Positions 1,961-28,902 of a stretch of DNA of 35,472 nucleotides are shown piece by piece (within the stretch, counting starts at the first letter, position 1; each line of letters opens with the position of its first letter). The translations under genes were made by a program, and so were the position numbers. The stretch comes from Bacteroidales bacterium. GTDB taxonomy: Bacteria; Bacteroidota; Bacteroidia; Bacteroidales; UBA932. The stretch covers positions 1 through 35,472 of the forward strand of contig JAGCFF010000058.1 of NCBI GenBank assembly GCA_017650285.1, written 5' to 3'. The notes under the pieces are model-generated. The model made no database searches. It was given only the letters and a program-made list of their open reading frames with translations, and was not told the DNA's origin.

Positions 1961-2761
1961 TCAGAAGCTGAACTGGTACGACACGCACAGGGATGCGCGG
2001 AAGCCGCGGTCGTAGCTGATCGATTTCAGCGTCGTGCCGCTCTGTGCGGTATCGACGTTCTTGTCGTAGTTGTAGTCGGCAAGCAGGTAGAAATCGAAGG
2101 AATTGTGCTTGTCGATCTCCCATTCGGCGCCTATCGATCCGCGCAGGCGATTGATATAGGCGTCGGTGTAGCCGGTGAAGACATAGTCGGTGAAAGTCTG
2201 GCTGACGGAGTTCCAGGTCGCAGCGCAGGCCGGGTCGTTGAACACGTTGCGCAGTTCCAGATAGCAGTAGGGGGTGAGGGATACGAAACCCTTGTAGGCG
2301 GCCTGTACACGGCTCTTGAGCTCGAGGGAGTTGGGCGTGCTCTGGTGCTTGTATGAGTTCACGTCCTTGTGGGTGAGCTGCAGGCGCTCTTTCAGGGAGA
2401 AATTCCAGTAGCCTGACTTCAGGGTATATTTGGCATCGGCATAGACACGGTGGCGGGTCTTCCATACGTCGGAAGACGAGAGCCTCTGGATCCATATGTA
2501 TCCTGCGCCGAACTTGAAATTGTCGTTGAGCTTGTAGGTGAGTCCGAGTCCGGTGTCGAAGCGGCCGAAACTGCTGAAATTGTCGTCGAGCCTTCCTTCG
2601 CCGGACAGGGACAGGTGCACACCCCTGACTATCTTCTTGTCGACGGTCACGCCTACGCGCGCTGCCATATCTGCGTCGAGGTCGTTCACGGTTATCTGAG
2701 CCTGAGCCAGTACGGGCATCGCGGCGAGCAGTATGCAAAGCAACAGTCTTCCAGTCTTCAT
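1961..2761 (-). CDS. Outer-membrane beta-barrel protein (DUF2490-like; family assignment tentative)
   Basis: 266 aa. It has the signal peptide 'MKTGRLLLCILLAAMPVLAQAQ', alternating hydrophobic/polar beta-strand pattern throughout, and a C-terminal aromatic 'YQFSF' typical of OMP beta-signals. It starts 4 nt after the DUF4956 stop. Confidence 0.7.
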   Translation of the reverse strand: MKTGRLLLCILLAAMPVLAQAQITVNDLDADMAARVGVTVDKKIVRGVHLSLSGEGRLDDNFSSFGRFDTGLGLTYKLNDNFKFGAGYIWIQRLSSSDVWKTRHRVYADAKYTLKSGYWNFSLKERLQLTHKDVNSYKHQSTPNSLELKSRVQAAYKGFVSLTPYCYLELRNVFNDPACAATWNSVSQTFTDYVFTGYTDAYINRLRGSIGAEWEIDKHNSFDFYLLADYNYDKNVDTAQSGTTLKSISYDRGFRASLCVSYQFSF

Positions 2762-2765
2762 AACA

Positions 2766-3533
2766 CTATTGTTCTACGAAGTCCTTGGCCCTGGTGAGAG
2801 TGTCGATCGAGCCGGTCTGGCCCTTCTCCAGCGTATAAAAAATCTTGATGTAGGCGGCATCCCTGAGGAAATCCACGTGGCCGATCTCAAGGTTGTCGAC
2901 CTTGACGCCGGTGCGCTTCTCCAGGTCTGCTATCAGTTCGTCCCTCTTTTCCGGAACTATGAGCTCGATGCGGTCGTAGAGCACCAGCTTGGTGGAAGTA
3001 TGATTGAGGAACTTGCCGTTCTCGAGGAACCAGATGAGCAGTATGACGAGCAGGTTCGACAGGGCCATAATGCCGACGGTTCCCATACTGATCACGTAGC
3101 GGGGGTCGGGACCCGCCACGCCCACGATCTTGTAGACCGGAGCGAGGCCGTTGAGGGCTGCCAGTGCGATGATGACGAAGAGGTAGGTCATCTCCCTGAT
3201 GGGCACCGTCTCGGTGCGGTAGCGTATCACGCCGAATATGGCGAAGAGGCCGAGGGTGAGGCCGACACCCACTTCCACGTTGCCCATAATGTAGAGCAGC
3301 AGGAGCATCGCGGCCGAGAACACCATGAAGGTGAAATAGTAGTCGCGGCGGCGGCTCTTGCGATAGTAGAAGAACTGGACGAGGATCCAGCATACGAGCA
3401 GGTTCAGGAAGAACCTTATGCAAAGCTCTGCAACAGACTGGCCGGTGGTCATCGCGGCGTCGGTGATGCTCTGGATGTCCATTATGTTCTCGTCGGCGAG
3501 GGTGTAGTCCCCGAAGTCCTGGGCGGTAATCAT
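2766..3533 (-). CDS. DUF4956 domain-containing inner-membrane protein
   Basis: 255 aa. The strongly conserved-looking core 'FFYYRKSRRRDYYFTFMVF..GLFAIFGVIRYRTETVPIREMTYLF' is recognised as the DUF4956 signature. It has several TM helices and a soluble C-terminal tail 'LVLYDRIELIVPEKRDELIADLEKRTG'. Its ATG overlaps the VTC stop (ATGA at 3533-3530). Confidence 0.85.
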   Translation of the reverse strand: MITAQDFGDYTLADENIMDIQSITDAAMTTGQSVAELCIRFFLNLLVCWILVQFFYYRKSRRRDYYFTFMVFSAAMLLLLYIMGNVEVGVGLTLGLFAIFGVIRYRTETVPIREMTYLFVIIALAALNGLAPVYKIVGVAGPDPRYVISMGTVGIMALSNLLVILLIWFLENGKFLNHTSTKLVLYDRIELIVPEKRDELIADLEKRTGVKVDNLEIGHVDFLRDAAYIKIFYTLEKGQTGSIDTLTRAKDFVEQ

Positions 3534-4324
3534 ATCACTTCAATTTTGTCGTTTATAATCTTTTCTATGCTGCGGACCTTCTCCTTGAAACGGTTCTTCT
3601 TGGCGGAAGGGTCGGTGAGGGTCTCCGCTATGCAGTATTTGCTGACGCGCAGCGGCTTTACGCGGTGGTCGAGCAGTATGCCCTTCATCTGGCTGGCGTA
3701 GCGGCCGTCCTGTTTGAGCTCGATGATGACGGCGTCCTTCAGGCTACCTCCGAGGCCTGTGCGGTAGTTGCTGAAATGCACTCCGGTGTCGATGGTCAGC
3801 CTCTCGGTCATTGCGGCGTTGACCAGCGTGATGCGGGCGAACGAGGTGGACAGCACCGGCTGCAGCATATCTGCGGTGAAGGCGGAGTGCCTTGCCAGAT
3901 AGTCGCAGGCGTCCCCGTCGCCTCCGAAGCCGAGCAGCTCGTCGCAGGGAATGCGGGTCCTCTTCTTCCTGGTGCGTCCGTGGTTGTCCTTGCGCTTGAT
4001 CTCCAGGTAGGCCTCGCCGGAATTCTCGTAGATGCGGGTGCGGACCTTCTGGCGTACAAGACGCTTGTCGTGGTGGGCGAGATACATCTTCAGCCCGTCG
4101 GTGTCATAATACACCGTGGTATAGGGACTCAGCTTCGAGCCCGAGGTTTCCAGCGCACGGTACCCGGCTGCCCTCGCATCCTCCAGAAGACTGACAAGCG
4201 TGGTCTCGTCTGTCACGTACTTGGTGTCGGTGCGGTTGAGCAGCCTGACGGAATCCATCTCCTCCAGGCTTACGGAGGGAATGGACCCGGCCAGGGGTTC
4301 CAGTATCGTGCGGGCATTATTCAT
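3530..4324 (-). CDS. VTC-domain (polyphosphate polymerase / triphosphate-tunnel) protein
   Basis: 264 aa with no signal peptide. 'LLNRTDTKYV', 'YTTVYYDT' and the basic strand 'AYLEIKRKDNHGRTRKKRTRI' match what I recall of bacterial VTC-domain proteins, which are annotated 'polyphosphate polymerase domain-containing protein'. Confidence 0.85.
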   Translation of the reverse strand: MNNARTILEPLAGSIPSVSLEEMDSVRLLNRTDTKYVTDETTLVSLLEDARAAGYRALETSGSKLSPYTTVYYDTDGLKMYLAHHDKRLVRQKVRTRIYENSGEAYLEIKRKDNHGRTRKKRTRIPCDELLGFGGDGDACDYLARHSAFTADMLQPVLSTSFARITLVNAAMTERLTIDTGVHFSNYRTGLGGSLKDAVIIELKQDGRYASQMKGILLDHRVKPLRVSKYCIAETLTDPSAKKNRFKEKVRSIEKIINDKIEVI

Positions 4325-4724
4325 CCTGCGTGATGTATTCGAATACCTTGGTGCTGATGAGCTTGCCTTTCGGATCGTAGGTATACTGCGTCTTCTTCTT
4401 GCCGAATTCGTTGTATTCGAACCGCTTGTAGTCTACCAGGCGGTTGCGCTCGTCATAGACCAGTTCGCGCACCAGGCGGTCGCCTGCCGCCCATTCGAAT
4501 TTCTTGCGCCACTTCTGCTTGCCGTTGCTGTAGTACTCGGTCTCGTCGATTTTCTGGCCGTCGGGAGAGTAGATGGTCTGATGGTCCAGGATACGGTGGC
4601 CTCTGGCGTCCGTGTTCCACTCCTTGACCACGAGGTTCTTCTTGTTGAGCGCCTGGCTGTCCTGTGCATACGCTGTCGACAGGCAGGCAATGAGCAATGT
4701 TGTGATGACTATCAGTTTTTTCAT
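4317..4724 (-). CDS. Small secreted protein with YD/MORN-like beta-hairpin repeats (hypothetical)
   Basis: The track ORF 4317-4817 begins with an Arg/His-rich stretch that overlaps the upstream gene. The ATG at 4724 gives a clean signal peptide 'MKKLIVITTLLIACLSTAYAQ'. The mature part is repetitive ('YYSNGKQKWRKKFEW', 'VYDERNRLVDYKRFEYNEFGKKKTQYTYDPKGKL'). It overlaps the VTC start by 8 nt. Confidence 0.7.
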   Translation of the reverse strand: MKKLIVITTLLIACLSTAYAQDSQALNKKNLVVKEWNTDARGHRILDHQTIYSPDGQKIDETEYYSNGKQKWRKKFEWAAGDRLVRELVYDERNRLVDYKRFEYNEFGKKKTQYTYDPKGKLISTKVFEYITQDE

Positions 4725-4735
4725 GGCTGTATGTT

Positions 4736-7700
4736 TTAATGGGGCCATCCTCCGCTTCCGCCGGTGTAGGTGGACAGAGTGGTCTCGGTGCCTCCGCTTA
4801 TGCCGCTTGTAGCCCACATACCGGAGCAGCGCTTGCCGCTGTTGTTCACGCTGACACCGTTGAACGCCTTGTCGAGCGAAGGCGCGGTGACGACGTATTG
4901 TGATGCACCCGAAGTCGCCTGGAAGGCGGCGATGGGCGTAGTTCCGTTGAAGAGTCCGGTCCAGCTGTTCTGCGTGGCGTTTATCTGGTAGATGTTCTGG
5001 CTTGATGAGTAGCCGCGCTCGAGGCCTCCGTACGAGACGATGGTGGCTCCGTTGTTGATGTAGAGCTTGTGGCCTTCCTCGGTGTTGGCGTCGAGGGCGA
5101 CTTCAGGACTGCCCTTGGTGGTCACGGCATAGACATAGCCGCCGCTGATCTTCATATCGCCGTTGGCGTCCATAGCGTCGTTCTTGCTGGAGAATGCGTA
5201 GATGTATCCGCTCTTTATGATCATATCTCCCTGGCAGTTGATGGCGTCGTCGGCTGCGGATGTCGAGTAGGTCTCTCCGCCGTCGAAGGTGAGCTTGCCC
5301 TTGGCCTCGATGCCTTCGCTTTTCGAACTGCTGACGGTGATGATGCCGCCGTTGATGACCAGGTTTCCGGCGGAGGCCGTCACCTTGTTGCCGTTCTTGG
5401 TAACCCAGCCGACCTTGATGCCCTTCGAAGTTTCACCGTTCGATTCGGCGCCGCTCGTGGTGATCTTGAGCGTACCTCCGGAGATATAGCTGTCGGCCAC
5501 GTTGTGGCTGCTGCTGTAGTCATAGTCGCCGGCGCTGATTCCTTTTCCGCCAGTGCCGGTATTGGTGATGGTGAGGGTTCCGGAGTTCATCTCGAAATAG
5601 TTGTCGGCCTTGATGCCTGCCGAGCCCTTGTATTCGCCGTCTTCGGTTCCTACGCCTCCGCTGACGTTGATGGTTGTGGAGCCGCCCTCCACGAGGACGT
5701 AGTTGTCAGAGGAGATGCCCTTCTTGGTCGCGGCCTTCGACGTTATGCTGATGGTGCCGGCGTTTATCTGCACATATTCATTGACCTTGATTCCGTGTCC
5801 CGCGCCGCTGTTTGCGATGACCTTGACGGTGGGTTTCGACAGGAACCTTATGTAGTCGTCGGACACGATGCCGCTCTTGCCCTTGGAGTTGTTTGCAGTC
5901 ACGGTCAGTGTGCCGCGTCCGCTGAACACCAGCTGTCCTTCGGAGAAGAAGACGGCCTTCATGTCTTCGCTGCCGGAAGAATAGGAGGCTGACGAGCCGT
6001 CCGCGAGGGCGTTGGTTCCTTCCACATATACGAAGGTCCGCTTGCCGCTCTGGTTGTTGATGGCGGCGCCGCTGCTGCAGGTGAGGTTGACGTTGCTGAG
6101 CCAGATAGCCTGCTTCTTGCTGCTGTAAAGCTTGAAGTAGCCGTCCGATGCGCTGCCCTTGAGTTTGTATGCCACGTTCTCGCTTCCGCTGTATGTGATG
6201 GTCACCTTGTTGCCGCTGATGCTTACCGTGAAGTCACCGGAGGCTGAACTGTAGCCGGTGACTGAAGCCCCGCCGGAAGCATAGGTCACGGTCACCAGAC
6301 GGGTGAAGGTGGTGTTGGAAATCTCGTCGTCGCTCGAACCGCCTCCCGACGAAGCGAAGACGGTGGTGACTTCTCCGTCCTGTCCGTCGTCACCGCCACC
6401 GCCGCCTGAACCGGGGTCGGATGTTACGGTGAGGGTATATGTGGCGGATGCGGACTGGTAGTTGGTGTTGCCGCCGAACGAGGCCGTTATGTCAGTGGTT
6501 CCGGTTCCCTTGAGGGTGACGGCTCCGCTGCTGCTTACGGTGGCCACGTTCGTCTCCGACGATGTGTAGTTTATGCTGAGACCGCCCGGAGAGACGGAGA
6601 GCGTTGGGAAACTGTTTGCACTTCCGTTTTCAAGGATGGCGTTGCAGCTTGAGGAACTCCATTCCAGATGGACCGTGTTCTTGACCACGTTGAGGTTGTA
6701 TGAGACCGTCTGGGCAGGATCGTCGTCCGTAGCCTTGGTCTTCGCGTATATGACGGTGAGACCTTCTTTCTTCAAGGTCACAGTGTAGCTGTTGCCGGAC
6801 TGGCTGACCGTCGCTACGGCTTCGTTGCTGGAACTGTATTCTACCGCCAGTCTCCCGGGGTTGTTCAGCGTCGGATAGACATTGCTGCTGCTTGCCAGCG
6901 TGGCGGTATATTCCTTGGTGCTCCAGGAGATGGTAACGTTGGCCGTGCTCTTCTGAACGGTCAGCGTATAAGAGGCGCTGGACGCATTGAAGATGTCCGT
7001 TTCCTTGCTGGAGGCGGTAATGGTTGTTTCTCCCGCTTTCTTCAGGGTGACGGTGTAGCCGGAGGCAGTGGCGCTCACCGTGGCCACGGACTCGTCGGAC
7101 GAGCTGTAGGTCACCTCGAGGTTGTTGGGGTTCTTGAGTTTAGGGAAAGAATTGTTTTGCGCCCCGATGGTCGCAGAATAATTAGCCTTGCTCCACTCCA
7201 GCCCTCCGTCGGCCTTTACGACGTTCAGGGTGTAGCTGGCAGATGTGGACGCGTATGTGTCGGTAGCCACGGAAGTGGCCTTGATGGTGGTGGTGCCCTG
7301 TGACTTGAGAGTCACGCTGCAGCCTGTTTCAGTGGCAACGACGGCGGCAACCGTTCCGTCGCTCGAACTGTATTCTATCTGCTGCTTTCCCGGATTGCTG
7401 AGGGTGGGGAAAACATTGCTGTCGCTGCCGAGGGTGGCAGTGCAGGATGCGTCGCTCCAGGAAATGAAGACTGACGACTTGGAGACGGTCAGGGTGTAGG
7501 AAGCCGTCGCCGCCTTGAATCTGCCGGTCTCCTTGCTGGAGGCGGTGATGACGGTGACGCCCTCGTGACGGAGGGTCACCTTGCAGCCATTGGAGGTGGG
7601 GGTCACGGAAGCCACGTTGCTGTCGCTCGAACTGAAGGAAACCTCCAGCTTGTCAGGATTGCTCAGCGTGGGGAAACGGTTGTCTTCGCCCATTACCGCG

Positions 7701-8887
7701 GTCGCGGAGGTCGAGCTCCACGCCAGCCTCGGTTCGGCGGGCTCTACGTTGAGGGTGTAGGAGCAGCTTGAGGAGTTGTAGATGTCTGTCTCCTCCGCCG
7801 TGGCGGTGACGGTGACGACGCCCTTGGAGAGAAGGTTCACGGCGTAGCCGTCTGCAGTGGCCGAGACTGTGGCCACCTTCGCGTCGCTGGAGCTGTAGGA
7901 GATCTTCTGGCCGCCGGGGTTGATGAGTGCGGGGAAGCTGTTGTCGGCGTTTATGGTCGCAGTGCATACCTCCTCACTCCAGGAGATGGCGACATCCGAC
8001 TTCCTGACGGTAAGGGTGTAGGAAGCACTGGACGCGTTGAAGATCCTTGATTCGGGGCTGGAAGCGGTGATGACGGTGACGCCCTCGTGGAGGGGAGTCA
8101 CCTTGCAGCCGTCGGCGGTGGCCGTGACGCTTGCAACATTGCTGTCACTCGAGCTGAAGGTCACTTCCAGCCGGTTGGGATTGAAAAGTGCGGGGAAGAT
8201 GTTGTCTTCGCCCATTACGGCCAGGGCTTCCTCTTCGCTCCAGGCCAGCTGTCCGTCGGCACGCTCGACGGTGAGGGTGTATGACACTTCGGCAGCCTCG
8301 TAGATGTCTGTCTGCGGGCTGGAAGCGGTGATGACTGCGATGCCGGCGGAAACCAGGGTCAGCCTGCAGCCGGCTTCAGCGGCCTCTACGGTTGCGACCC
8401 CTTCGTCGCTGGAGGTGAATGCCACCTCCAGCTTGTTGGGGTTGCTGAGTGACGGATATTCATTGTCATTGCCCATAACTGCCGTGGCTTCGGCCGCACT
8501 CCATCCGAGTCCCGCTCCGGCGCGTACGACCGTAAGGGTATAGGAGCAGGATGACGCCAGGAACCTGTCGTCCCTTTCGCTGAATGCAGTGATCACGGTC
8601 GTTCCCGCAGCCACCGGAGTGACCTGTCCCTTGCCGTCGACGGTAGCCACCTCCTCGTTGGAGGAGAGATAACTTACGTCGACTTTCTTGAGGTTCGACA
8701 GTGTCGGGAACTCGTTGGCCTGGCCGAGTACGGCAAGCGCTTCGGCCTGGCTCCAGCTGAGCCTGGGGTCATTGAGCGTAGCGTCCGGATCCGGGTCGAT
8801 GTCGGATATAGTTATGACATCGCCCGTGCAGTCCCAGAGCAGGGGCAGCGCCAGCGCACAGATGAACAATGACAGAAGCTTACGCAT
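4736..8887 (-). CDS. Giant surface lipoprotein: 9 tandem Ig-like (Big_2-like) modules, a Gly/Asp linker, and a Cthe_2159-type parallel beta-helix carbohydrate-binding domain
   Basis: The track start at 8890 is TTG; the ATG one codon later (8887-8885) gives 'MRKLLSLFICALALPLLWDC' (lipobox Cys). Nine ~87-aa modules have the pattern 'L/I-x-WS...FP.L.NP..L.V.[FY]SSSD..VATV....G..VTL...G.T.ITAS......A.ASYTLTV'. The linker is 'PGSGGGGGDDGQDGE'. The C-terminal ~540 aa carry repeated 'KGIS/EGIEA/DDAINC/NDAMDA' turns characteristic of the Cthe_2159 beta-helix family. Confidence 0.9.
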   Translation of the reverse strand: MRKLLSLFICALALPLLWDCTGDVITISDIDPDPDATLNDPRLSWSQAEALAVLGQANEFPTLSNLKKVDVSYLSSNEEVATVDGKGQVTPVAAGTTVITAFSERDDRFLASSCSYTLTVVRAGAGLGWSAAEATAVMGNDNEYPSLSNPNKLEVAFTSSDEGVATVEAAEAGCRLTLVSAGIAVITASSPQTDIYEAAEVSYTLTVERADGQLAWSEEEALAVMGEDNIFPALFNPNRLEVTFSSSDSNVASVTATADGCKVTPLHEGVTVITASSPESRIFNASSASYTLTVRKSDVAISWSEEVCTATINADNSFPALINPGGQKISYSSSDAKVATVSATADGYAVNLLSKGVVTVTATAEETDIYNSSSCSYTLNVEPAEPRLAWSSTSATAVMGEDNRFPTLSNPDKLEVSFSSSDSNVASVTPTSNGCKVTLRHEGVTVITASSKETGRFKAATASYTLTVSKSSVFISWSDASCTATLGSDSNVFPTLSNPGKQQIEYSSSDGTVAAVVATETGCSVTLKSQGTTTIKATSVATDTYASTSASYTLNVVKADGGLEWSKANYSATIGAQNNSFPKLKNPNNLEVTYSSSDESVATVSATASGYTVTLKKAGETTITASSKETDIFNASSASYTLTVQKSTANVTISWSTKEYTATLASSSNVYPTLNNPGRLAVEYSSSNEAVATVSQSGNSYTVTLKKEGLTVIYAKTKATDDDPAQTVSYNLNVVKNTVHLEWSSSSCNAILENGSANSFPTLSVSPGGLSINYTSSETNVATVSSSGAVTLKGTGTTDITASFGGNTNYQSASATYTLTVTSDPGSGGGGGDDGQDGEVTTVFASSGGGSSDDEISNTTFTRLVTVTYASGGASVTGYSSASGDFTVSISGNKVTITYSGSENVAYKLKGSASDGYFKLYSSKKQAIWLSNVNLTCSSGAAINNQSGKRTFVYVEGTNALADGSSASYSSGSEDMKAVFFSEGQLVFSGRGTLTVTANNSKGKSGIVSDDYIRFLSKPTVKVIANSGAGHGIKVNEYVQINAGTISITSKAATKKGISSDNYVLVEGGSTTINVSGGVGTEDGEYKGSAGIKADNYFEMNSGTLTITNTGTGGKGISAGDYDYSSSHNVADSYISGGTLKITTSGAESNGETSKGIKVGWVTKNGNKVTASAGNLVINGGIITVSSSKSEGIEAKGKLTFDGGETYSTSAADDAINCQGDMIIKSGYIYAFSSKNDAMDANGDMKISGGYVYAVTTKGSPEVALDANTEEGHKLYINNGATIVSYGGLERGYSSSQNIYQINATQNSWTGLFNGTTPIAAFQATSGASQYVVTAPSLDKAFNGVSVNNSGKRCSGMWATSGISGGTETTLSTYTGGSGGWPH
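6422..8761 (-). repeat. Intragenic tandem array of 9 Ig-like coding modules (period ~261 bp, with a younger 522-bp two-module duplication)
   Basis: Module starts fall at aa 44, 128, 215, 302, 389, 476, 564, 654 and 742 of the track ORF. An identical 26-mer 'gcggtgatgacggtgacgccctcgtg' occurs at 8064-8089 and 7542-7567, an offset of exactly 522 bp. Confidence 0.85.
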
Positions 8888-11787
8888 CAATATCCGAATA
8901 TTTCTTCAAGAGTTACGTTCTGTACGGGACCGAGGGTCCTGAGGAAGTTCATGTCGAGATCAGCGGGATCGCCGAGGATTCCGTAGTAGTATGTGCGGTC
9001 CTTGACGTATTTCTGCTGGATGGCGACAATGTCGTTCATCGTCAGAGAAGGGAGTTTCTGGTATACCAGTTTCTCGACAGGCTCGTCGATGCCGAGTTCC
9101 TCAGCTGCGAGATAGCTGTTGAGCACGGCGGCGCCGGTGGTCCTGTTGGTGCGCAGCACGCCGTCGAGAGCGGTCTTGGCGATCTCGAATGCACGGTCGC
9201 TCTGCGGCATATTGTTGATGATGTCGTCGAATGCCTCGACAGCTGCCCTGAGCTTGTCGTTCTGCGAGCCGATCCTTGCCATAAAGTAGTAGTCGTCCTG
9301 CTTGTAGGTGGGAGAAGCCAGACGGGCGCCTGCAGAGTAGGCGAGAGCCCTGGCCTCACGCATCTCCTGGAACACGATGGTGTTCATTCCGCTTCCGAAA
9401 TACTCGTTGTAGAGATTGATTGCAGGTTCGTCGGCAAGCTCGTATTTCTCACCGCGGTTGGTATACTGGATGTAGTTGAACTGACGTGCGTCATAGGGGG
9501 CGACTATCACTTTCGGAGAGTCGGTGCGCACCTTCGGGGTACGGATCCTGGTGACGGGCGTGAGCGAGCCGGCAACGTCGTGGTTCTCGGCGATGAGGTC
9601 CTTGACTTCGCCTGATGAGGCGGGACCGTAGTAGAGCACCTTGTGCTTCTTGGTGAGCAGGTTGGTGACCTTGGCCAGAAGTTCCTCGGAGGTGAGGTCG
9701 ATGATCTGCTGGTTGGTGAGGGTGCGGGCCTTCACGTTCTCCGGGCCGTAGATGACATACCTGTTGAGGGCGCTTGAGCAGGAGTTCTGGTTGAACTTGC
9801 TGATGGCGCGCTGCTGGAGCTGGTCGGCCTTGAGGGCGGCGAGGATGTCCTCGTCAGCGACAGCGTTGGCGATGAGGTCTTCAGCGATTTCGAGAGCCTT
9901 GCCGATGTTCTCGCCAAGTCCTGAGACGGCAATCCTGGTCTGGTCGTCGCCGCAGGCGAAATCGAAGCTCGATGCAAGCTTGTACATCTCTATTGCAATC
10001 TCCTCGGCACTGCGGGTCTCGGTTCCGAGGTAGCTTACGTAGTTGAGAGCGAAGCTCATTGCAGGGTCGTTGAGAAGGCCTTCGTCAAAGAGGAATACGA
10101 GCTGGGCGATGTCGTTCTTCTCGTTGTTCTTGTAGATGATGTCGAGGTCAGAACGGCCTTTGAATACTGACATATCCTTTGAGAAGTCGACGAAGACGGG
10201 TTCGATGGGCTTCACTGCAGTGCTCTGCACTTCAACGAGGAAATCGCTCTGCTTGTCGCGGTTGGTGGCGATGGGGGTGATGGCGGGAGCCTCGATCTTG
10301 TGGATGTCAGGATCTACTCCGATATGCTTGTAGGCTGTAACGTGGCTGTTTTCGCCGAGATACTTGTTGGCCCAGGCGACGATGTCCTGCTTGGTGAGCT
10401 TTGAGAGCCTGTCGAGCAGCTGCACGTCATCCTTCCAGTCGCGGCCTGCGATGAACGAGTTGACGAACTGCATTGCGCGGCTGCGGTTGTTCTCGAGGCT
10501 GCTCATCTGGCTGAGCTTGAAGTTGGCGATGGATGCTTCAACGAGGTCCTCGTCAAAGTCGCCGCTGCGGAGCTTGGCAACTTCTGCAAGAAGAAGGTCC
10601 CTGACTTCCTTGAGGCTCTGTCCCTCCTTGGGGTAACCTTCGAGAAGGAACTGGCCGTAGTCAACAGAGCCGTATGCGAAGGCTCCTGCGTCGAGCGCTT
10701 TCTGCTGCTGGTTGATGTCGAGGTCGATGAGGCCTGCCATACCGTTGTAGAGGATTGCTGAAACCACGTCGGCAACGTCGCCTTCGAGGTCCTTGCTGCC
10801 GGGATAGCGCCAGCCGATCATTACGAATTCAGCCTCGGTGCCGTAAACGTCTTTCTCGACAGGGGCGGTGATGTCCTTCTCGGGAGCATATTTCAGCTCG
10901 GGAACACCTGCTGAACGCTCCCAGTCGCCGAAGTACTTCTCGATGGTCTTAACGAACTCGTCGGGCTCGAAGTCTCCCGATACGCAGATGGCGATGTTGT
11001 CAGGAACGTAGTAGGTGGCTTTCTGCTTCTTGATGGTGGTGATAGAAGGGTTCTTCAGGTGGTCCTGGGTGCCGATGACGGTCTGCTTGCCGTAAGGATG
11101 GTTCTTGAAGAGTTCCTTGGCGATGGAAGTCATGGCCTTCTCCATATCCTCGTTGAGGTTCATGTTGTATTCCTCGTACACGGCCTCGAGCTCGGTGTGG
11201 AAACCGCGGATGACCATATTCTTGAAACGGTCGGCCTGGACCTTGGCCCAGTTGTCGATCTGGTTGGAAGGGATGTCCTCCACATAGCAGGTCACGTCTT
11301 CAGAGGTGAAGGCGTTGGTGCCCTGCGAACCGATCATGGCCATCAGCTTGTCATACTCGTTGGGGATGGCGATCTGTGATGCAAGGTAGCTCACAGAGTC
11401 GATCTGGCGGTAGAGCATCCTTCTCTCCACGGGGTCGGTCTTTGTCCTGTAAACTTCATAGAGTCGTTCGATCTCGTCGAGCAGGGGCTTCTCGGCTGCA
11501 TAGTCCGAAGTGCCGAAACTTTCGGTGCCCTTGAACATCAGGTGCTCGAGATAGTGGGCGAGACCCGTGTTGTCAGAGGGGTCGTTCTTGCCGCCTGTGC
11601 GGACGGCGATCATGGTCTGAAGCCTGGGCTCGTCCTTGTTGACGGTCATGTAGATCTTCATACCGTTGTCCATCGTGTAGATCTTGGTCTGAAGAGGGTC
11701 TCCTTTCACGGTCTCATACTTGCCGGAGCAGGAGAAGAGCATCATCATCGCCGTAAAGGCGAGAATCAAATTGGTAATTCTTTTCAT
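8887..11787 (-). CDS. M16 (pitrilysin/insulinase) family zinc peptidase lipoprotein, double-length form
   Basis: The inverted zinc motif HxxEH is present in 'GLAHYLEHLMFKGT'. The ATG at 11787 gives the lipoprotein signal 'MKRITNLILAFTAMMMLFSC'. The longer track start at 11874 would run through the candidate promoter. The stop TGA (8889-8887) shares its A with the ATG of the next gene. Confidence 0.9.
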   Translation of the reverse strand: MKRITNLILAFTAMMMLFSCSGKYETVKGDPLQTKIYTMDNGMKIYMTVNKDEPRLQTMIAVRTGGKNDPSDNTGLAHYLEHLMFKGTESFGTSDYAAEKPLLDEIERLYEVYRTKTDPVERRMLYRQIDSVSYLASQIAIPNEYDKLMAMIGSQGTNAFTSEDVTCYVEDIPSNQIDNWAKVQADRFKNMVIRGFHTELEAVYEEYNMNLNEDMEKAMTSIAKELFKNHPYGKQTVIGTQDHLKNPSITTIKKQKATYYVPDNIAICVSGDFEPDEFVKTIEKYFGDWERSAGVPELKYAPEKDITAPVEKDVYGTEAEFVMIGWRYPGSKDLEGDVADVVSAILYNGMAGLIDLDINQQQKALDAGAFAYGSVDYGQFLLEGYPKEGQSLKEVRDLLLAEVAKLRSGDFDEDLVEASIANFKLSQMSSLENNRSRAMQFVNSFIAGRDWKDDVQLLDRLSKLTKQDIVAWANKYLGENSHVTAYKHIGVDPDIHKIEAPAITPIATNRDKQSDFLVEVQSTAVKPIEPVFVDFSKDMSVFKGRSDLDIIYKNNEKNDIAQLVFLFDEGLLNDPAMSFALNYVSYLGTETRSAEEIAIEMYKLASSFDFACGDDQTRIAVSGLGENIGKALEIAEDLIANAVADEDILAALKADQLQQRAISKFNQNSCSSALNRYVIYGPENVKARTLTNQQIIDLTSEELLAKVTNLLTKKHKVLYYGPASSGEVKDLIAENHDVAGSLTPVTRIRTPKVRTDSPKVIVAPYDARQFNYIQYTNRGEKYELADEPAINLYNEYFGSGMNTIVFQEMREARALAYSAGARLASPTYKQDDYYFMARIGSQNDKLRAAVEAFDDIINNMPQSDRAFEIAKTALDGVLRTNRTTGAAVLNSYLAAEELGIDEPVEKLVYQKLPSLTMNDIVAIQQKYVKDRTYYYGILGDPADLDMNFLRTLGPVQNVTLEEIFGY

Positions 11788-11827
11788 ATCTTGACGTTTA
11801 AAAATAGCCGATAGCAATTGTAACTTA

Positions 11828-11835
11828 CAAAAGTA
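11828..11835 (-). promoter_or_regulatory. Candidate -7 box (TAnnTTTG on the minus strand) for the M16-to-barrel operon
   Basis: Plus-strand 'CAAAAGTA' is minus-strand 'TACTTTTG', about 40 nt upstream of the ATG at 11787. Confidence 0.35.
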
Positions 11836-11880
11836 TAAAATATGCCCCAAAAGCGTTATCTTTACGCACATCAATTTGCT

Positions 11881-12810
11881 ATGGAAGCCAAAAGAATTTA
11901 TCTAGCAGCAGGGTGTTTCTGGGGTGCGGAACATTTTCTCCGCAAGCTTCCGGGAATCAAATCCACCCGGGTGGGCTTTGCCAACGGCAGCACACCGTCA
12001 CCGTCCTATCGTGAAGTATATACCGACACTACCGGTTACGCAGAGACCGTGGAGGTCGTCTATGATCCGGAGAAGATGCCTTTGAAATGGCTGGTGGAGG
12101 CCTATTTCGCCATCATCGATCCACTGAGCCTGAATCGTCAGGGGGAGGATGAGGGTACCCGTTACCGCACCGGCATCTTCTACGAAGACGAAGCAGACCT
12201 TGCAGCCATCGATGAAGCTTACAGCCGTGAGCAGGACTTTCAGGGCCAGGCGCTCCGCGTCGAGAAGGAGCCGCTGCGCAATTTCTATCCTGCTGAAGAG
12301 GAACATCAGGATTACCTGATAAAGCACGCCGACGGATACTGCCACGTAGACCTGAAGGCGTTCCGCTATGCCGAACTGCTCAAGGAGCTTGAGAGTATGG
12401 TAGAGGGAGTAGGCGACGAAGTTGGTGTGATGGCCAATACGGCCGCACTGATCCACGAGAGCATGCGTTTCTTCTGGACCGGTTTCTACCGGGTGGCCGA
12501 TGAAGGACATCTCGCCCTCGGCCCGTTCCAGGGACCTGTGGCCTGCTACAGCATAGGCTTCGGCAAAGGCGTGTGCGGTACGTCTTGGAAGCGTATGGCC
12601 AGCGTAGTGGTCGAGGATGTAGAGCAGTTCCCCGGACACATCGCCTGCAGCAGCGCTTCACGCTCCGAGATAGTGGTTCCCCTGTTCGATCGTTCGGGCA
12701 AGGTTAGGGCCGTTCTGGACATAGACAGCGACAGGCTGGCCACATTCGACGATATCGACCGCCGGATGCTGGAGATAGCGATGCAGATCGTTGCCCGGGA
12801 AATCTATTGA
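11881..12810 (+). CDS. msrA: Fusion of peptide-methionine (S)-S-oxide reductase MsrA and a GAF-domain free methionine-(R)-sulfoxide reductase (fRMsr/MsrC)
   Basis: The N-terminal half carries the MsrA active site 'AAGCFWGAEHF'. The C-terminal half carries fRMsr hallmarks 'GPVACYSIGFGKGVCGTSW' and 'FPGHIACSSASRSEIVVPL' (three catalytic-type Cys). The start is ambiguous: ATG 11881 ('MEAKRIYLAAGCFWG') is preferred over ATG 11842 because of a 7/8 -7 box 'TATCTTTA' at 11858-11865. Confidence 0.85.
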   Translation: MEAKRIYLAAGCFWGAEHFLRKLPGIKSTRVGFANGSTPSPSYREVYTDTTGYAETVEVVYDPEKMPLKWLVEAYFAIIDPLSLNRQGEDEGTRYRTGIFYEDEADLAAIDEAYSREQDFQGQALRVEKEPLRNFYPAEEEHQDYLIKHADGYCHVDLKAFRYAELLKELESMVEGVGDEVGVMANTAALIHESMRFFWTGFYRVADEGHLALGPFQGPVACYSIGFGKGVCGTSWKRMASVVVEDVEQFPGHIACSSASRSEIVVPLFDRSGKVRAVLDIDSDRLATFDDIDRRMLEIAMQIVAREIY

Positions 12811-13799
12811 CGGCCGATTATGTCGATCCGCCAGGTGATGCCGAGGTCGAAGTTGTCCCTTCTGAGAGAATTGTCGCGATAGTAGACTGCGTGCAGCCTT
12901 ATGTTGTCGCGTCCCAGCGGGAAGTATTCCACGCCGGCTCCGGCGTAAAGATATTCTGTGCCCGGTGCGATCACCGCGTCGAAGGGGCGTCCGTACCTGT
13001 CGACATTGTCGCGCGAGTTGGTCTCGTAACCTCCCTTGAAGCAGAGATTCCAGTCGCCTACGCTCCAGATGGTCTTGAGGATCACCGTATAGTCGGTGAA
13101 AAAGAAGTTCCTCTGCTGGAAGGAGGCCCTGTTCATAAGGTCCAGATCCAGCAGGAAGTTGTCCCACTGGAAGTGGTTGCCCAGGGCGAGGTAGTTGATG
13201 AAACGCCCGTCCAGATCCTGAACGAAGTTGGCGGTCCATATGGTGTTCCATATGTCAGTGATCTTGCCCATCCAGGCGAAGTTGTAGGCATAGACGCCCT
13301 GGTAGCCGTATGAAAGGGGAGAGGTGCAGACCTGGAACTCCAGCAGCTGCCTGTCGGTGAGCCTGTATGCCGTGCTGGCACCGAAGGTGAAACCCTGGTT
13401 TATGCTGTTGCAGAACTTGCTGTAGAAATAGACGTCGATGGGCACGGCGTCATATTCGTAGCCTCCTATCAGCACGGCGTCCTTGCCGACGCGGAAACTC
13501 CACCGGTCAGTGGCCTGCCAGTTGATGTAGAGGAAGTCCGTGGCGTTGAAGACGTAGTGCTCGTCGAACACCTGCTTGTTGAGCCTCTGCCGCAGTCGGT
13601 AGTTGATGCGGTCGTTGATGTGGCCGAATATGTTGAGGTTGAGGTGGTCGGCAAGGAACTGTGTGCTGACATCCCCGTCATCGCCCTGGAGATGGAATAT
13701 GCCTCGCGTGTCGATATAGAGCCTGTCGACTCCGCCGGCCTGGGCCATTGCGGTGAATGACAGCACTGTCAGTGCAACAATGGAAAGAATCTTTCTCAT
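12804..13799 (-). CDS. Outer-membrane porin (OprO/OprP phosphate-selective-porin-like; tentative)
   Basis: 331 aa. It has the signal peptide 'MRKILSIVALTVLSFTAMAQA' and a beta-strand-rich, aromatic-girdle composition. 'INYRLRQRLNKQ' and 'FRVGKDAVLIGGYEY' resemble Porin_O_P family blocks as I remember them. Confidence 0.65.
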   Translation of the reverse strand: MRKILSIVALTVLSFTAMAQAGGVDRLYIDTRGIFHLQGDDGDVSTQFLADHLNLNIFGHINDRINYRLRQRLNKQVFDEHYVFNATDFLYINWQATDRWSFRVGKDAVLIGGYEYDAVPIDVYFYSKFCNSINQGFTFGASTAYRLTDRQLLEFQVCTSPLSYGYQGVYAYNFAWMGKITDIWNTIWTANFVQDLDGRFINYLALGNHFQWDNFLLDLDLMNRASFQQRNFFFTDYTVILKTIWSVGDWNLCFKGGYETNSRDNVDRYGRPFDAVIAPGTEYLYAGAGVEYFPLGRDNIRLHAVYYRDNSLRRDNFDLGITWRIDIIGRQ

Positions 13800-13806
13800 A
13801 GCTTGG

Positions 13807-14910
13807 TCAGTTTTCGGGAACCAGGTTCAGCACCACATATTCGCTCCTCGTTCCTATGCGGAACTTGCCGCCCCAGATTCCCATACCCGATGTTATATAA
13901 TAGTTGGTGTTTCCTTTTGCGTAACGTCCGTATGACTTCTCGAACTTGAGACGTGTCACTATCGTCGCGGGCCAGATCTGTCCGTTGTGCGTGTGGCCGC
14001 TGAACTGGAAGTCGATTCCTGCTTCTTCGGCTTCTTCAAGATGCTCGGGCTGATGGTCGAGCAGGATCGAGAACTTGCTCCGGTCAGAGCCGGAGAGGAC
14101 GTGCCCGAGAGGCTGCCTGCTGTATTTGTTGGAGTTGTCGTCCCGTCCTATGATTACGATGCCGCAGTCTTCGGCCCACCCGTTTTTCAGAAGACGGATG
14201 CCGGCTTCCCTGTAGAAGTCTTCAGACTGGGCGATGCCTGCATAATATTCGTGATTGCCGAGGCAGGCGTAGACCGGAGCTTCGATCCTGCGGAACTCGG
14301 CGGCATCGTCGTCATCCTCGAGCGCGCGGATGGAACGGTCTATCAGGTCTCCTCCGAACAGGACCAGGTCCGGGTGCTCGGCATTGATCATATCGACCCA
14401 TTTGGCGAGATCGGCCCTGCGGTTGTGATATCCGATGTGTAGGTCGCTGGCAAATACCGCCTTGACCGGCCGGCTGATCTTCTGGGAAGTCAGGGTGATC
14501 TCTTCCCTGTATTTGTGCCTGTAATGGATTCCGCCGTAGACCAGCAGCACCGCTATGGTGCCGAAGACCAGAGCAGTCCCGGCCCAGCTGTCGGAGTGGA
14601 TGCCGGACGGCAGCACGCGGCAAAGCTGGAGCACCCTCATCAGCACGAACAGCAGCATGGCGTACAGCGAGAATATGAGGCAGGTATTGCCGGTCACATA
14701 GAGTGCTGACGCCACGCCCATCGGGAAATGGCTGACCCTTCCGCTGATGGAGATGAAGAACCCGGCGAATGCAAGCAGATAGAGGCCCACAGCCGTCCAT
14801 TTCCACAGGTTGGAAAGCGGAAGGATGCGGTAGATGCAGAAAGCTACATATCCCAATGCGGCAAAAGCTGACAACATTATGATCATTCCGGTGAGTTTTG
14901 TGAAATCCAT
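13807..14910 (-). CDS. Membrane-anchored metallophosphoesterase (calcineurin-like, YkuE/YaeI-type)
   Basis: The track start 14919 is TTG; the ATG at 14910 gives 'MDFTKLTGMIIMLSAF'. Four to five N-terminal TM helices are followed by the motifs 'DLHIG', 'GGDLID', 'GNHEY' and 'GHTHNG'. Confidence 0.85.
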   Translation of the reverse strand: MDFTKLTGMIIMLSAFAALGYVAFCIYRILPLSNLWKWTAVGLYLLAFAGFFISISGRVSHFPMGVASALYVTGNTCLIFSLYAMLLFVLMRVLQLCRVLPSGIHSDSWAGTALVFGTIAVLLVYGGIHYRHKYREEITLTSQKISRPVKAVFASDLHIGYHNRRADLAKWVDMINAEHPDLVLFGGDLIDRSIRALEDDDDAAEFRRIEAPVYACLGNHEYYAGIAQSEDFYREAGIRLLKNGWAEDCGIVIIGRDDNSNKYSRQPLGHVLSGSDRSKFSILLDHQPEHLEEAEEAGIDFQFSGHTHNGQIWPATIVTRLKFEKSYGRYAKGNTNYYITSGMGIWGGKFRIGTRSEYVVLNLVPEN

Positions 14911-14926
14911 CAAATGCAAATTTATG

Positions 14927-16694: not shown

Positions 16695-16732
16695 AACGCA
16701 ACGGGCTGCTGCAGTCCGTTGCGTTTTTTTTG
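16695..16732 (+). terminator. Rho-independent terminator of aqpZ
   Basis: A perfect 10-bp stem, 'aacgcaacgg' (16695-16704) with 'ccgttgcgtt' (16716-16725), has an 11-nt loop and is followed by an 8-T run (16724-16731). Confidence 0.75.
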
Positions 16733-16740
16733 TACATTTG
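16733..16740 (+). promoter_or_regulatory. Candidate -7 box for the patatin-Omp85 gene
   Basis: An exact 'TACATTTG' lies 36 nt upstream of the ATG at 16776, immediately after the aqpZ terminator. Confidence 0.4.
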
Positions 16741-16775
16741 TGTATTGTGTAATACCATATTCATTCAGAGGATTG

Positions 16776-22088
<5,313 letters not shown>

Positions 22089-28017: not shown

Positions 28018-28902
28018 ATGAAAAGAATACTTCTGATTGTCTGCTGCGCTGCTGTTGCAGCGTGCTCCCACAAGCCGGTCATAGACGTGCAGGCCCACAG
28101 GGGAGGCGCCGGGTTGATGCCGGAGAACACGCTCTCCGCAATGAAGAACGCCCTCGACCTTCGCGTAAACACCCTTGAATTCGACCTGCAACTGTCCAAG
28201 GACTGCGACGTGGTAGTCTCCCACGACAGCTATTTCCATCCCCGCTATTCCATCAGGCCTGACGGCTCTCTCATCGCCGAAAGCGACCCGAAGGAATACC
28301 TCTTCACTATGTCTTATGACAGCATCGCCAAGTACGAGGTAGGGCTTAGACACGTGGACCGCTGGCCCACGCAGGCCAAGATACACGAGGTGAAGCCGCT
28401 CGCAGGCGACCTGATCGACTTCAGCGAAGCCTATGCACAGCAGATCGGCCTCAAGCCTGTGAACTACAACATCGAGATCAAGTCCTGGCCCGGTGACGGA
28501 GAAGGCACACTGTGGCCTGACTACAAACTTTTCTGTGACACCTGCATTCCACTGCTTCTTTCGAAGCATCTCGGCGACCGTCTCATAGTCCAGAGTTTCG
28601 ACACGCGCGCTCTCAATTATATGCACGCCAAGTGGCCGGATGTAATCCTGTCGTATCTGACCGAAGCCTATGAAGGAGGCGACATCGAGGTCCTGCTCGG
28701 CAAGCTCGAATTCAAGCCCCAATGGTGGAGCCCGGAGTCGAGCGTAGTCACTCCCGAGAATGTGAAGTGGTGCCACGATCACGGAATAGGAGTCGTGCCG
28801 TGGACAGTGGACGATCCTGACGAGATGCGCCGCCTCGTGGAATGCGGCGTGGAGGCCATTATTTCAAATTATCCTGACATACTTATTGAGACTGTAAGAT
28901 AA
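28018..28902 (+). CDS. glpQ: Glycerophosphodiester phosphodiesterase lipoprotein
   Basis: It has the lipobox 'AAVAACS' and the GDPD motifs 'HRGGAGLMPENT' and 'LEFDLQLSKDCDVVVSHD'. Confidence 0.9.
   Translation: MKRILLIVCCAAVAACSHKPVIDVQAHRGGAGLMPENTLSAMKNALDLRVNTLEFDLQLSKDCDVVVSHDSYFHPRYSIRPDGSLIAESDPKEYLFTMSYDSIAKYEVGLRHVDRWPTQAKIHEVKPLAGDLIDFSEAYAQQIGLKPVNYNIEIKSWPGDGEGTLWPDYKLFCDTCIPLLLSKHLGDRLIVQSFDTRALNYMHAKWPDVILSYLTEAYEGGDIEVLLGKLEFKPQWWSPESSVVTPENVKWCHDHGIGVVPWTVDDPDEMRRLVECGVEAIISNYPDILIETVR

Follow-up and report, generated by a model that had tools for sequence, protein, structure and literature searches.

The window analysed here is a stretch of 35,472 nucleotides (nt) from a Bacteroidales bacterium (GTDB lineage Bacteria; Bacteroidota; Bacteroidia; Bacteroidales; UBA932), namely contig JAGCFF010000058.1 of GenBank assembly GCA_017650285.1, whose minus strand carries adjoining genes for a soluble VTC-domain protein and for a membrane protein of the DUF4956 family. 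We propose, with a probability of about 0.45, that these two proteins form a two-polypeptide bacterial counterpart of the eukaryotic VTC machine, in which a Vtc4-like polyphosphate (polyP) polymerase would work on DUF4956 at the inner membrane. Sequence and modelled fold identify the VTC protein as a Vtc4-type triphosphate tunnel metalloenzyme (TTM) whose polymerase active site is essentially complete, and comparison across genomes gives good support to the view that VTC and DUF4956 are an obligate functional pair, the two genes being passed on together in five phyla or more. The enzyme already bears the NCBI product name 'polyphosphate polymerase domain-containing protein', and the adjacency of VTC and DUF4956 has been noted in passing in the literature. 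New here are the breadth and strictness of the pairing, the envelope cassette that surrounds it in Bacteroidia, and the residue-level case for activity.

A preliminary description of the window had reported a VTC protein of 264 amino acids (aa) and a DUF4956 protein of 255 aa joined by an ATGA overlap. Both open reading frames (ORFs) lie on the minus strand where it had put them, and coordinates, lengths and overlap were all confirmed. Its two-gene view was right about the pair and missed the wider five-gene cassette to which the pair belongs.

The VTC enzyme and its linkage to DUF4956

The VTC protein matches Pfam PF09359 over residues 30-233 (E=3.2e-28) with a score of 99 bits, the cutoff being 23, and the match takes in profile positions 1-230 of 235; Pfam recognised neither SPX nor any further domain in it even at E<=10. 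Its AlphaFold2 (AF2) model, with a predicted local distance difference test score (pLDDT) of 94.4 and a predicted template-modelling score (pTM) of 0.90, contains no transmembrane (TM) helix, which agrees with the preliminary statement that the bacterial protein lacks both SPX and TM regions. When the model was compared with the PDB by Foldseek, the tunnel domains of yeast Vtc4, Vtc3 and Vtc2 filled the first 13 places (E 1.5e-12 to 7e-11; template-modelling scores 0.54-0.60), followed by a second tier of YgiF and CYTH triphosphatases. At the sequence level, a profile of 111 family members, gathered by an exhaustive search of 50% representatives together with plasmid homologues, reached Vtc4 (3g3q, E=1.5e-5) and Vtc2 (3g3o, E=1e-4) in the PDB. 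PDB searches with the single VTC sequence and with two shallow profiles missed Vtc4 or barely reached it, and a profile made from the C-terminal half alone did not reach it. By every sequence and fold criterion except Y359, the protein belongs to the VTC/TTM polymerase family.

Residues of the window protein were matched to those of Vtc4 by way of this alignment, in which chain numbering equals Vtc4 numbering minus 185, in agreement with the published mutant positions R264, R266 and E426. The segments that align the C-terminal half with Vtc4 are individually weak, yet they are collinear and reproduce the published residue numbers. In the cryo-electron microscopy study of yeast VTC, the triphosphate is held by K200, R264, R266, K281, R361, K458, S457 and Y359 and Mn2+ by E426, and cellular polyP requires all nine of these Vtc4 residues. 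Eight of the nine are retained in the window protein, the exception being Y359 (Table 1); the check on tunnel residues that the preliminary description had called for thus came out in favour of its polymerase, with each retained residue found in 110 or 111 of the 111 family members. Among them, K458 alone is changed in the inactive yeast paralogues (to Ile in Vtc2 and Leu in Vtc3), and since its equivalent K229 is kept, the active site is of the Vtc4 type and not of the Vtc2/3 type.

Table 1. Window VTC residues, their Vtc4 equivalents and their occurrence among the 111 aligned family members
Window residue	Vtc4 residue	Family members
R31	R196	111/111
K35	K200	110/111
R95	R264	110/111
R97	R266	111/111
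E108	E279	111/111
K110	K281	111/111
K120	K294	111/111
R122	R296	111/111
F162	Y359	F 90, Y 18, C 3 of 111
R164	R361	111/111
R175	R373	110/111
E202	E426	111/111
K204	K428	111/111
S228	S457	110/111
K229	K458	111/111

The 'basic strand' singled out in the preliminary description, AYLEIKRKDNHGRTRKKRTRI, was found at residues 105-125, where it forms the hairpin that matches beta4-loop-beta5 of Vtc4 and bears E108, K110, K120 and R122. Within its loop, K-N-N-K-G-R-T, family conservation is 106/111 for K112, 93/111 for N114, 87/111 for G116 and 108/111 for T118. In yeast VTC the matching beta4-beta5 loop, which bears W287, reaches into the TM domain of the pore, and by analogy the bacterial loop is a reasonable candidate for an element that docks on the membrane partner.

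The linkage of the two genes was examined in two collections. The first consists of the best 80 Bacteroidia loci, anchored on DUF4956, from a scan with one genome per species. VTC lies immediately upstream of DUF4956 in 77 of these loci and the other three end at contig edges; the 4-nt ATGA overlap is present in 37 of the 77, with most of the others spaced within a few tens of bases. In the window, the junction reads gtgatATGAttacc, the TGA of VTC sharing bases with the ATG of DUF4956, which would allow translational coupling of the two genes. The second, independent collection comprises 72,556 plasmid and chromid records, searched by tblastn with each protein separately. DUF4956 was found in 17 records and VTC in 16, all of them among those 17, and in every one of the 16 records with both genes (from Deinococcus, Alphaproteobacteria and Actinobacteria) the two are adjacent. 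In Deinococcus VTC comes first, while in Aminobacter, Shinella, Nitratireductor, Streptomyces and Nonomuraea it follows DUF4956. The linkage persists in at least five phyla although the gene order has been inverted, and this speaks well for a joint function.

The 17th record, plasmid NZ_CP142031.1 of Pseudoalteromonas sp. CuT4-3 (L082:6655-8651), carries a 105-aa VTC remnant just upstream of DUF4956. This plasmid seemingly retains DUF4956 without an intact polymerase, and a gene for a lamin-tail-domain protein stands before its DUF4956 gene.

DUF4956 and the envelope cassette of Bacteroidia

DUF4956 of the window matches Pfam PF16316 with full profile coverage (residues 44-233, E=2.1e-48, 165 bits against a cutoff of 30.6), no second domain being seen in Pfam even at E<=10, and its distant plasmid homologues match the same family (E 1e-45 to 1e-59). 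The AF2 model shows five long helices (30-59, 63-84, 88-107, 112-130 and 150-171), a beta-hairpin at 134-148 that is predicted to be periplasmic, and a C-terminal beta-alpha-beta-beta domain (179-234) that is predicted to be cytoplasmic; the acidic N-terminal tail is predicted to be periplasmic. The basic juxtamembrane block YYRKSRRRDYY occupies loop 1, which counts five K/R and one D/E. Loops 1 and 3 together hold eight K/R, as against two K/R and eight D/E in the N-terminal tail, loop 2 and loop 4, so that the basic residues are concentrated in the predicted cytoplasmic loops 57-65 and 104-115. The basic juxtamembrane block, several TM helices and soluble tail of the preliminary description were all recovered, and its check on the side of the block, by the positive-inside count and by homologues that bear a signal peptide, placed it on the predicted cytoplasmic face, where the preliminary model needs it to be.

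These homologues (P0320, P0338 and P0355, about 286 aa) begin with a hydrophobic, signal-peptide-like segment followed by about 60 acidic residues before TM1. The same subgroup is without the hairpin insert between TM4 and TM5, which suggests a variable periplasmic module. A further indication of topology comes from DUF4956 and DUF2490, whose genes are adjacent in the window and which recur as single ORFs (P0298, P0300, P0250, P0299, P0302; L043:7977-9467; clusters of 20 and 13 members). At the junction, after the C-terminal domain of DUF4956, the signal peptide of DUF2490 is retained in these fusions, as is an AxA-like cleavage site. Their former signal peptide would have to cross the membrane from a cytoplasmic C-terminus, which supports a C-in orientation of DUF4956. 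Signal-peptidase cleavage of such a product could free the outer-membrane barrel; alternatively, the fusions could be repeated stop-codon losses or sequencing errors. Because the charge count, the signal-peptide-bearing homologues and the fusions agree, the topology is assigned as N-out/C-in, and DUF4956 is, on these sequence features, an inner-membrane protein with five TM helices whose basic loops and beta-alpha-beta-beta domain are predicted to face the cytoplasm.

Across homologues from Bacteroidia, Deinococcus, Proteobacteria and Actinobacteria, the only invariant DUF4956 columns are Y56, G95, L96, F97, R106, Y117, F119 and R207. Most of them fall in a conserved core made of TM3, the following loop and the start of TM4, with the cross-phylum pattern GLFA...RxRxE...MTYxF. 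The YYRKSRRRDYY block is conserved inside Bacteroidia.

In the window the pair stands at the centre of five tightly packed minus-strand genes (1961-8890), and this arrangement is widespread in the Bacteroidia set. A homologue of the small lipoprotein lies directly upstream of VTC in 69 of the 80 loci, DUF2490 adjoins DUF4956 in 70 of the 80, and a homologue of the large Cthe_2159 lipoprotein is found at most loci, as a rule immediately before the small lipoprotein gene. In B. thetaiotaomicron, too, DUF4956 and DUF2490 genes are adjacent (BT3498-99). The genes that flank the cassette in the window (M16 peptidase, MsrA-GAF, porin O/P, metallophosphoesterase, Lrp and methionine gamma-lyase) are not conserved beside it in the 80 related loci; the cassette being conserved and its flanks not, it is a self-contained module. 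Its members are predicted to reach from the cytoplasm via the inner membrane, the periplasm and the outer membrane to the cell surface.

Proposed mechanism and alternatives

We suggest that the likeliest purpose of the pair is polyP synthesis coupled to membrane passage. The enzyme would take the gamma-phosphate of ATP and lengthen a polyP chain while docked on a DUF4956 oligomer, possibly through the conserved beta4-beta5 loop and the basic C-terminal helix of the VTC protein, and DUF4956 would either thread the nascent chain into the periplasm or hold and regulate the polymerase at the membrane. In this Bacteroidales genome, where the pair would be co-transcribed with the small lipoprotein, the DUF2490 barrel and the surface beta-helix lipoprotein, the whole could form an envelope-spanning route that brings polyP to the periplasm or surface; the periplasmic, outer-membrane and surface proteins that the Bacteroidia cassette adds are what an export path would need. 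In other phyla, polyP synthesis would serve as a phosphate sink or store, which would fit neighbouring genes for PiT, PhnDCE, phytase-like, acid phosphatase and phosphate porin proteins and would parallel the yeast VTC genes, which are under PHO regulation. The fullest form of this proposal, a synthase-translocase of several phyla, independent of polyphosphate kinase (PPK), in which the Vtc4-like enzyme feeds the chain through a DUF4956 oligomer and the Bacteroidia cassette carries or holds polyP at the surface, is put forward tentatively. Polymerase activity, docking, the oligomeric pore and the direction of transport are all inferred.

Several findings weigh against the proposed machine, and they are taken up here together with the alternatives on which they bear. 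The AF2 model of DUF4956 is of moderate confidence only (pLDDT 73, pTM 0.56). Its helices contain almost no K/R, with none in TM2-TM5 and R40 alone in TM1, whereas the yeast pore is lined by K24/R31-type basic residues of five TM1 helices (K24 and R31 of Vtc1 and their equivalents), a comparison made on the DUF4956 monomer, from which an oligomeric pore is not to be judged. R106 is the sole cross-phylum invariant Arg in the TM region, and distant homologues do not preserve the YYRKSRRRDYY block as such, Y56 alone being invariant in them and the basicity variable. Foldseek found no significant match to DUF4956 in the PDB, the best (E=0.2) being ACT-type domains that match the C-terminal unit, and a hidden Markov model search of the PDB with DUF4956 found nothing, VTC chains included. 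The preliminary description had basic residues line a polyanion path, which is hard to reconcile with basic residues that sit in cytoplasmic loops, and it suggested that DUF4956 may supply the membrane conduit, for which no kinship to the Vtc1-type channel is detectable by sequence or fold. Overall, the preliminary interpretation is borne out in part.

The scarcity of basic residues in the helices would suit an alternative that we regard as rather unlikely, in which DUF4956 is an anchor and/or an ACT-like regulator (responding, for example, to a phosphate-status ligand), polyP stays in the cytoplasm, and the remaining cassette genes serve the envelope in some separate way. The weak structural matches of the beta-alpha-beta-beta domain are all of ACT type, and others have called the corresponding domain of a Streptococcus homologue ACT-like; outside Bacteroidia the pair is often without any outer-membrane or periplasmic partner. 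Moreover, isolated yeast Vtc4 TTM is slow and depends on the membrane part for efficiency, according to published work, which fits activation by a partner without transport. A plain anchor, however, would need neither five TM helices nor a TM3-loop-TM4 core that is nearly invariant across phyla, and the locking of DUF4956 to a barrel, a periplasmic lipoprotein and a surface protein in Bacteroidia, or to a phosphate-type porin in Pseudoalteromonas, points to envelope crossing. The literature also describes the Streptococcus homologue as MgtC-like, a kinship that was not detectable here: DUF4956 has no Pfam MgtC (PF02308) match at E<=10, and hhalign of a 64-sequence DUF4956 alignment against E. 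coli YhiD gave a probability of 0.1%. YhiD itself matched MgtC at 5e-39.

On the enzyme side, Y359 is replaced by Phe (F162), a substitution by which polyP is lowered in yeast. The bacterial family also has two near-invariant acidic residues, D33 in 107/111 and E174 in 108/111, in place of T198 and V372 of Vtc4, and the bacterial beta1 motif RxDxK is intermediate between RxTxK of Vtc4 and ExExK of TTM hydrolases. D33 and E174 could indicate another chemistry, for example a hydrolytic one, and a literature search found no biochemical or structural test of a bacterial VTC-domain protein. The same residues would agree with a scavenging role, in which the surface protein and barrel capture and admit external polyP, DUF4956 passes it on, and the TTM enzyme hydrolyses it or transfers its phosphate to ADP. 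TTM enzymes are mostly hydrolases and provide the second-best structural matches, and genes of phosphate acquisition (porin O/P, PiT, PhnDCE, phytase-like esterase, acid phosphatase) accompany the pair. We nevertheless consider this role unlikely, given that both structure and residues agree best with the polymerase Vtc4, down to K458, a Lys absent from the non-polymerising paralogues.

The phosphate context itself takes several forms. The Nitratireductor pair has a PiT transporter and a phytase-like esterase as neighbours, the Aminobacter pair a phytase-like esterase, and the pair of Deinococcus QL22 a HAD acid phosphatase and phnDCE; in Pseudoalteromonas a phosphate-selective porin O/P (E=2.4e-47) directly follows DUF4956, in the slot that DUF2490 occupies in Bacteroidia. 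The yeast VTC (PHM) genes are induced by phosphate starvation though they encode synthases, and therefore such a context cannot separate synthesis from scavenging. The window, too, has phosphate-scavenging genes at 12804-13799 (-), 13807-14919 (-), 28018-28902 (+) and 28902-30272 (+), a set made up of a phosphate-selective porin O/P, a calcineurin-like metallophosphoesterase, a glycerophosphodiester phosphodiesterase and a major facilitator superfamily (MFS) transporter, which would likewise be in keeping with uptake. As these genes are not conserved beside the cassette in the 80 loci, they provide no evidence on its function, and their clustering with it may be a coincidence or specific to this genome.

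Gram-positive pel loci carry cotH, a polyphosphate polymerase gene and DUF4956 as accessory genes (Whitfield 2020, PMC7112168), and in C. perfringens NELoc-2 the VTC-domain genes lie beside CotH, each with a predicted membrane protein annotated as tubulin/FtsZ-like. The only genetics found comes from S. intermedius SIR_1592-1594, in which deletion of DUF4956 or CotH changed the Pel level and aggregation; against the proposed machine, deletion of VTC was without such a phenotype, unlike deletion of DUF4956 (PMC12345266). A CotH gene also neighbours the pair in D. taeanensis. Together with the chemical versatility of TTM enzymes, the association with CotH in pel loci, Deinococcus and NELoc-2 would fit a triphosphate substrate other than polyP (a nucleotide, a signalling molecule or a phosphorylated precursor of a surface polymer), DUF4956 then being a membrane effector in surface modification with CotH kinases or Cthe_2159 proteins. 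This appears improbable in view of the invariance of the full set of Vtc4 residues that hold the phosphate chain, of recurrent neighbours outside Firmicutes that are inorganic-phosphate genes and not polysaccharide genes, and of a window without any CotH or pel gene.

A search with the concatenated pair returned one VTC-DUF4956 fusion only, P0241 (526 aa, on a single NCBI contig of 2025 nt), joined at ...DKLIITAPLMIPIDEIG... and otherwise 66% identical to the window pair. It would place the cytoplasmic enzyme on the predicted periplasmic N-terminus and is a probable read-through or assembly artefact, so the pair has no Rosetta stone support. Two further database proteins look like artefacts and were set aside: P0092 (399 aa), a frameshift fusion of small lipoprotein and VTC, and P0121 (384 aa), a DUF4956 with an internal chimeric duplication that ranks above the true self-match in homology searches.

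Known systems, significance and further features of the window

The yeast VTC complex (PDB 3G3Q, 7YTJ, 8I6V) is the closest known system. It shares with the bacterial pair the tunnel fold, with Vtc4 as best structural match, the triphosphate and Mn2+ residues including the Lys of the active subunit, the beta4-beta5 hairpin, and production of the enzyme together with a membrane protein, which in bacteria takes the form of a fixed genetic unit. In contrast to yeast, the bacterial enzyme and membrane part are separate polypeptides, the enzyme has Phe for Y359 and the extra acidic D33 and E174, and it is without SPX and therefore without inositol-pyrophosphate control. DUF4956, with five TM helices almost devoid of basic residues and its beta-alpha-beta-beta domain, is unrelated to the 3-TM Vtc1-type subunit, and the bacterial target would be the periplasm or cell surface instead of the vacuole. 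Having no SPX, no Vtc1-type subunit and no basic helix lining, the bacterial pair falls outside the eukaryotic VTC complex.

PPK1 and PPK2 would catalyse the same overall reaction in bacteria, polyP from nucleoside triphosphate; their folds are unrelated to the VTC enzyme, and they come without a dedicated integral membrane partner or outer-membrane genes. The CYTH/TTM hydrolases (E. coli YgiF, thiamine triphosphatase, CyaB-like proteins, AtTTM3) belong to the same eight-stranded tunnel superfamily and share an acidic residue two positions ahead of the beta1 Lys. They differ in matching Pfam CYTH and not VTC, in lacking an S-K motif equivalent to S457-K458, and in being soluble, stand-alone proteins with no DUF4956 partner. 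MgtC/SapB/YhiD proteins resemble DUF4956 in having about five TM helices and a small ACT-like cytoplasmic domain, and differ in that a sequence relation is undetectable.

Two secretion contexts may also be compared. In the accessory genes of Gram-positive pel loci (PMC7112168; PMC12345266) the same two families are adjacent, and Streptococcus mutants exist, whereas the window cassette has no CotH, DUF4832 or pel gene and instead combines the pair with a Cthe_2159 lipoprotein, a small lipoprotein and a DUF2490 barrel; the pel-locus papers propose no polymerase-channel unit and state that the three-gene arrangement is absent outside pel loci. Synthase-dependent secretion of cellulose (Bcs), alginate, Pel and poly-N-acetylglucosamine likewise unites in one operon a polymerase at the cytoplasmic face on an inner-membrane protein, a periplasmic lipoprotein and an outer-membrane barrel. 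Not one component is homologous and the polymer here would be inorganic, so the likeness is an analogy only.

Bacterial polyP is currently credited to PPK1 and PPK2. An active pair would be a PPK-independent route, and such a second, VTC-type route, in a family of about 7,300 clusters at 50% identity, would, if true, alter the reading of polyP-negative or ppk-less genomes. The proposal, if correct, would also assign a role to DUF4956 and perhaps DUF2490, and offer a two-protein model for synthesis-coupled polyP translocation. The pair could account for periplasmic or surface polyP, and in Bacteroidales of rumen and gut it points to an unlooked-for surface phosphate polymer or store. A polyP role may further explain the association with CotH kinases and Pel loci in Gram-positive pathogens. 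A membrane half that works like that of VTC would have arisen separately from the eukaryotic Vtc1 channel. In its fullest form, the proposal would describe the first system to secrete an inorganic polymer across the envelope.

The coordinates of the cassette genes and of the features discussed above are collected in Table 2.

Table 2. Cassette genes and sequence features, with positions in the window
Feature	Position	Strand	Basis
VTC-domain protein, 264 aa, Vtc4-type TTM, soluble	3530..4324	-	Pfam PF09359, AF2 model, Foldseek, family profile
DUF4956 protein, 255 aa, 5 TM	2766..3533	-	Pfam PF16316, AF2 model, charge distribution
DUF2490 protein, 266 aa, signal peptide, putative outer-membrane beta-barrel/porin, last cassette gene	1961..2761	-	Pfam PF10677
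Small lipoprotein, ~135 aa from internal ATG, MKKLIVITTLLIAC N-terminus	4317..4724	-	ORF and lipobox read from sequence
Large lipoprotein, 1384 aa, first cassette gene	4736..8890	-	Pfam Cthe_2159 and Big_2
ATGA overlap, VTC stop/DUF4956 start	3530..3533	-	sequence read directly
'Basic strand', VTC residues 105-125	3950..4012	-	alignment to 3g3q
Acidic D33 of VTC	4219-4227	-	family alignment
Acidic E174 of VTC	3803-3805	-	family alignment
Juxtamembrane basic block, DUF4956 residues 56-66, TM1-TM2 loop	3336..3368	-	charge count
Most conserved DUF4956 core, residues 91-119: TM3 GLTLGLFAIFGVI, loop RYRTETVPIRE, TM4 start MTYLF	3177..3263	-	invariant columns

Among the outer members of the cassette, the large lipoprotein consists of Big_2 immunoglobulin-like repeats (E=3.2e-28), a Gly-rich linker and a C-terminal Cthe_2159 beta-helix ('carbohydrate-binding') domain (E=5.6e-38). 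The small lipoprotein was delimited mechanically as an ORF at 4817..4317, its likely start being 4724, and shows weak YD/RHS/MORN-like repeats (weak Pfam and NCBIfam matches). DUF2490 matches PF10677 (E=8e-18), has a signal-like N-terminus, MKTGRLLLCILLAAMPVLAQAQ, and belongs to a family listed as putative porin family TC 1.B.81. Read directly, the small lipoprotein and VTC genes overlap by 8 nt, and a 4-nt spacer separates DUF4956 from DUF2490. A scan for promoters and terminators gave chance-level matches only, with none on the minus strand within the cassette. An anti-phage defence system was considered and dropped, as the PADLOC defence models had no match at E<=0.01 among the four small cassette proteins.

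Cassettes of the Bacteroidia type, with 55-60% identity, were also seen on contigs titled Gastranaerophilales, Faecalibacillus and Butyricicoccaceae (L041, L042 and L045). Those of L042 and L045 include the DUF2490 gene, and the L041 contig stops inside DUF4956. These contigs are probably mis-binned rather than products of transfer into Gram-positives.

The gene for an M16 (insulinase-type) peptidase of 995 aa (8887-11874, minus strand) ends where the large lipoprotein gene begins on the same strand, and it may be co-transcribed with the cassette; none of the related loci has an M16 peptidase gene beside the cassette. The window also encodes two fusion proteins, one of a patatin-like phospholipase with an Omp85-type barrel (832 aa, 16719-19217, plus strand) and one of MsrA with a GAF domain (322 aa, 11842-12810, plus strand). 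In Nitratireductor, msrB and msrA lie just upstream of DUF4956-VTC, which is probably a coincidence.

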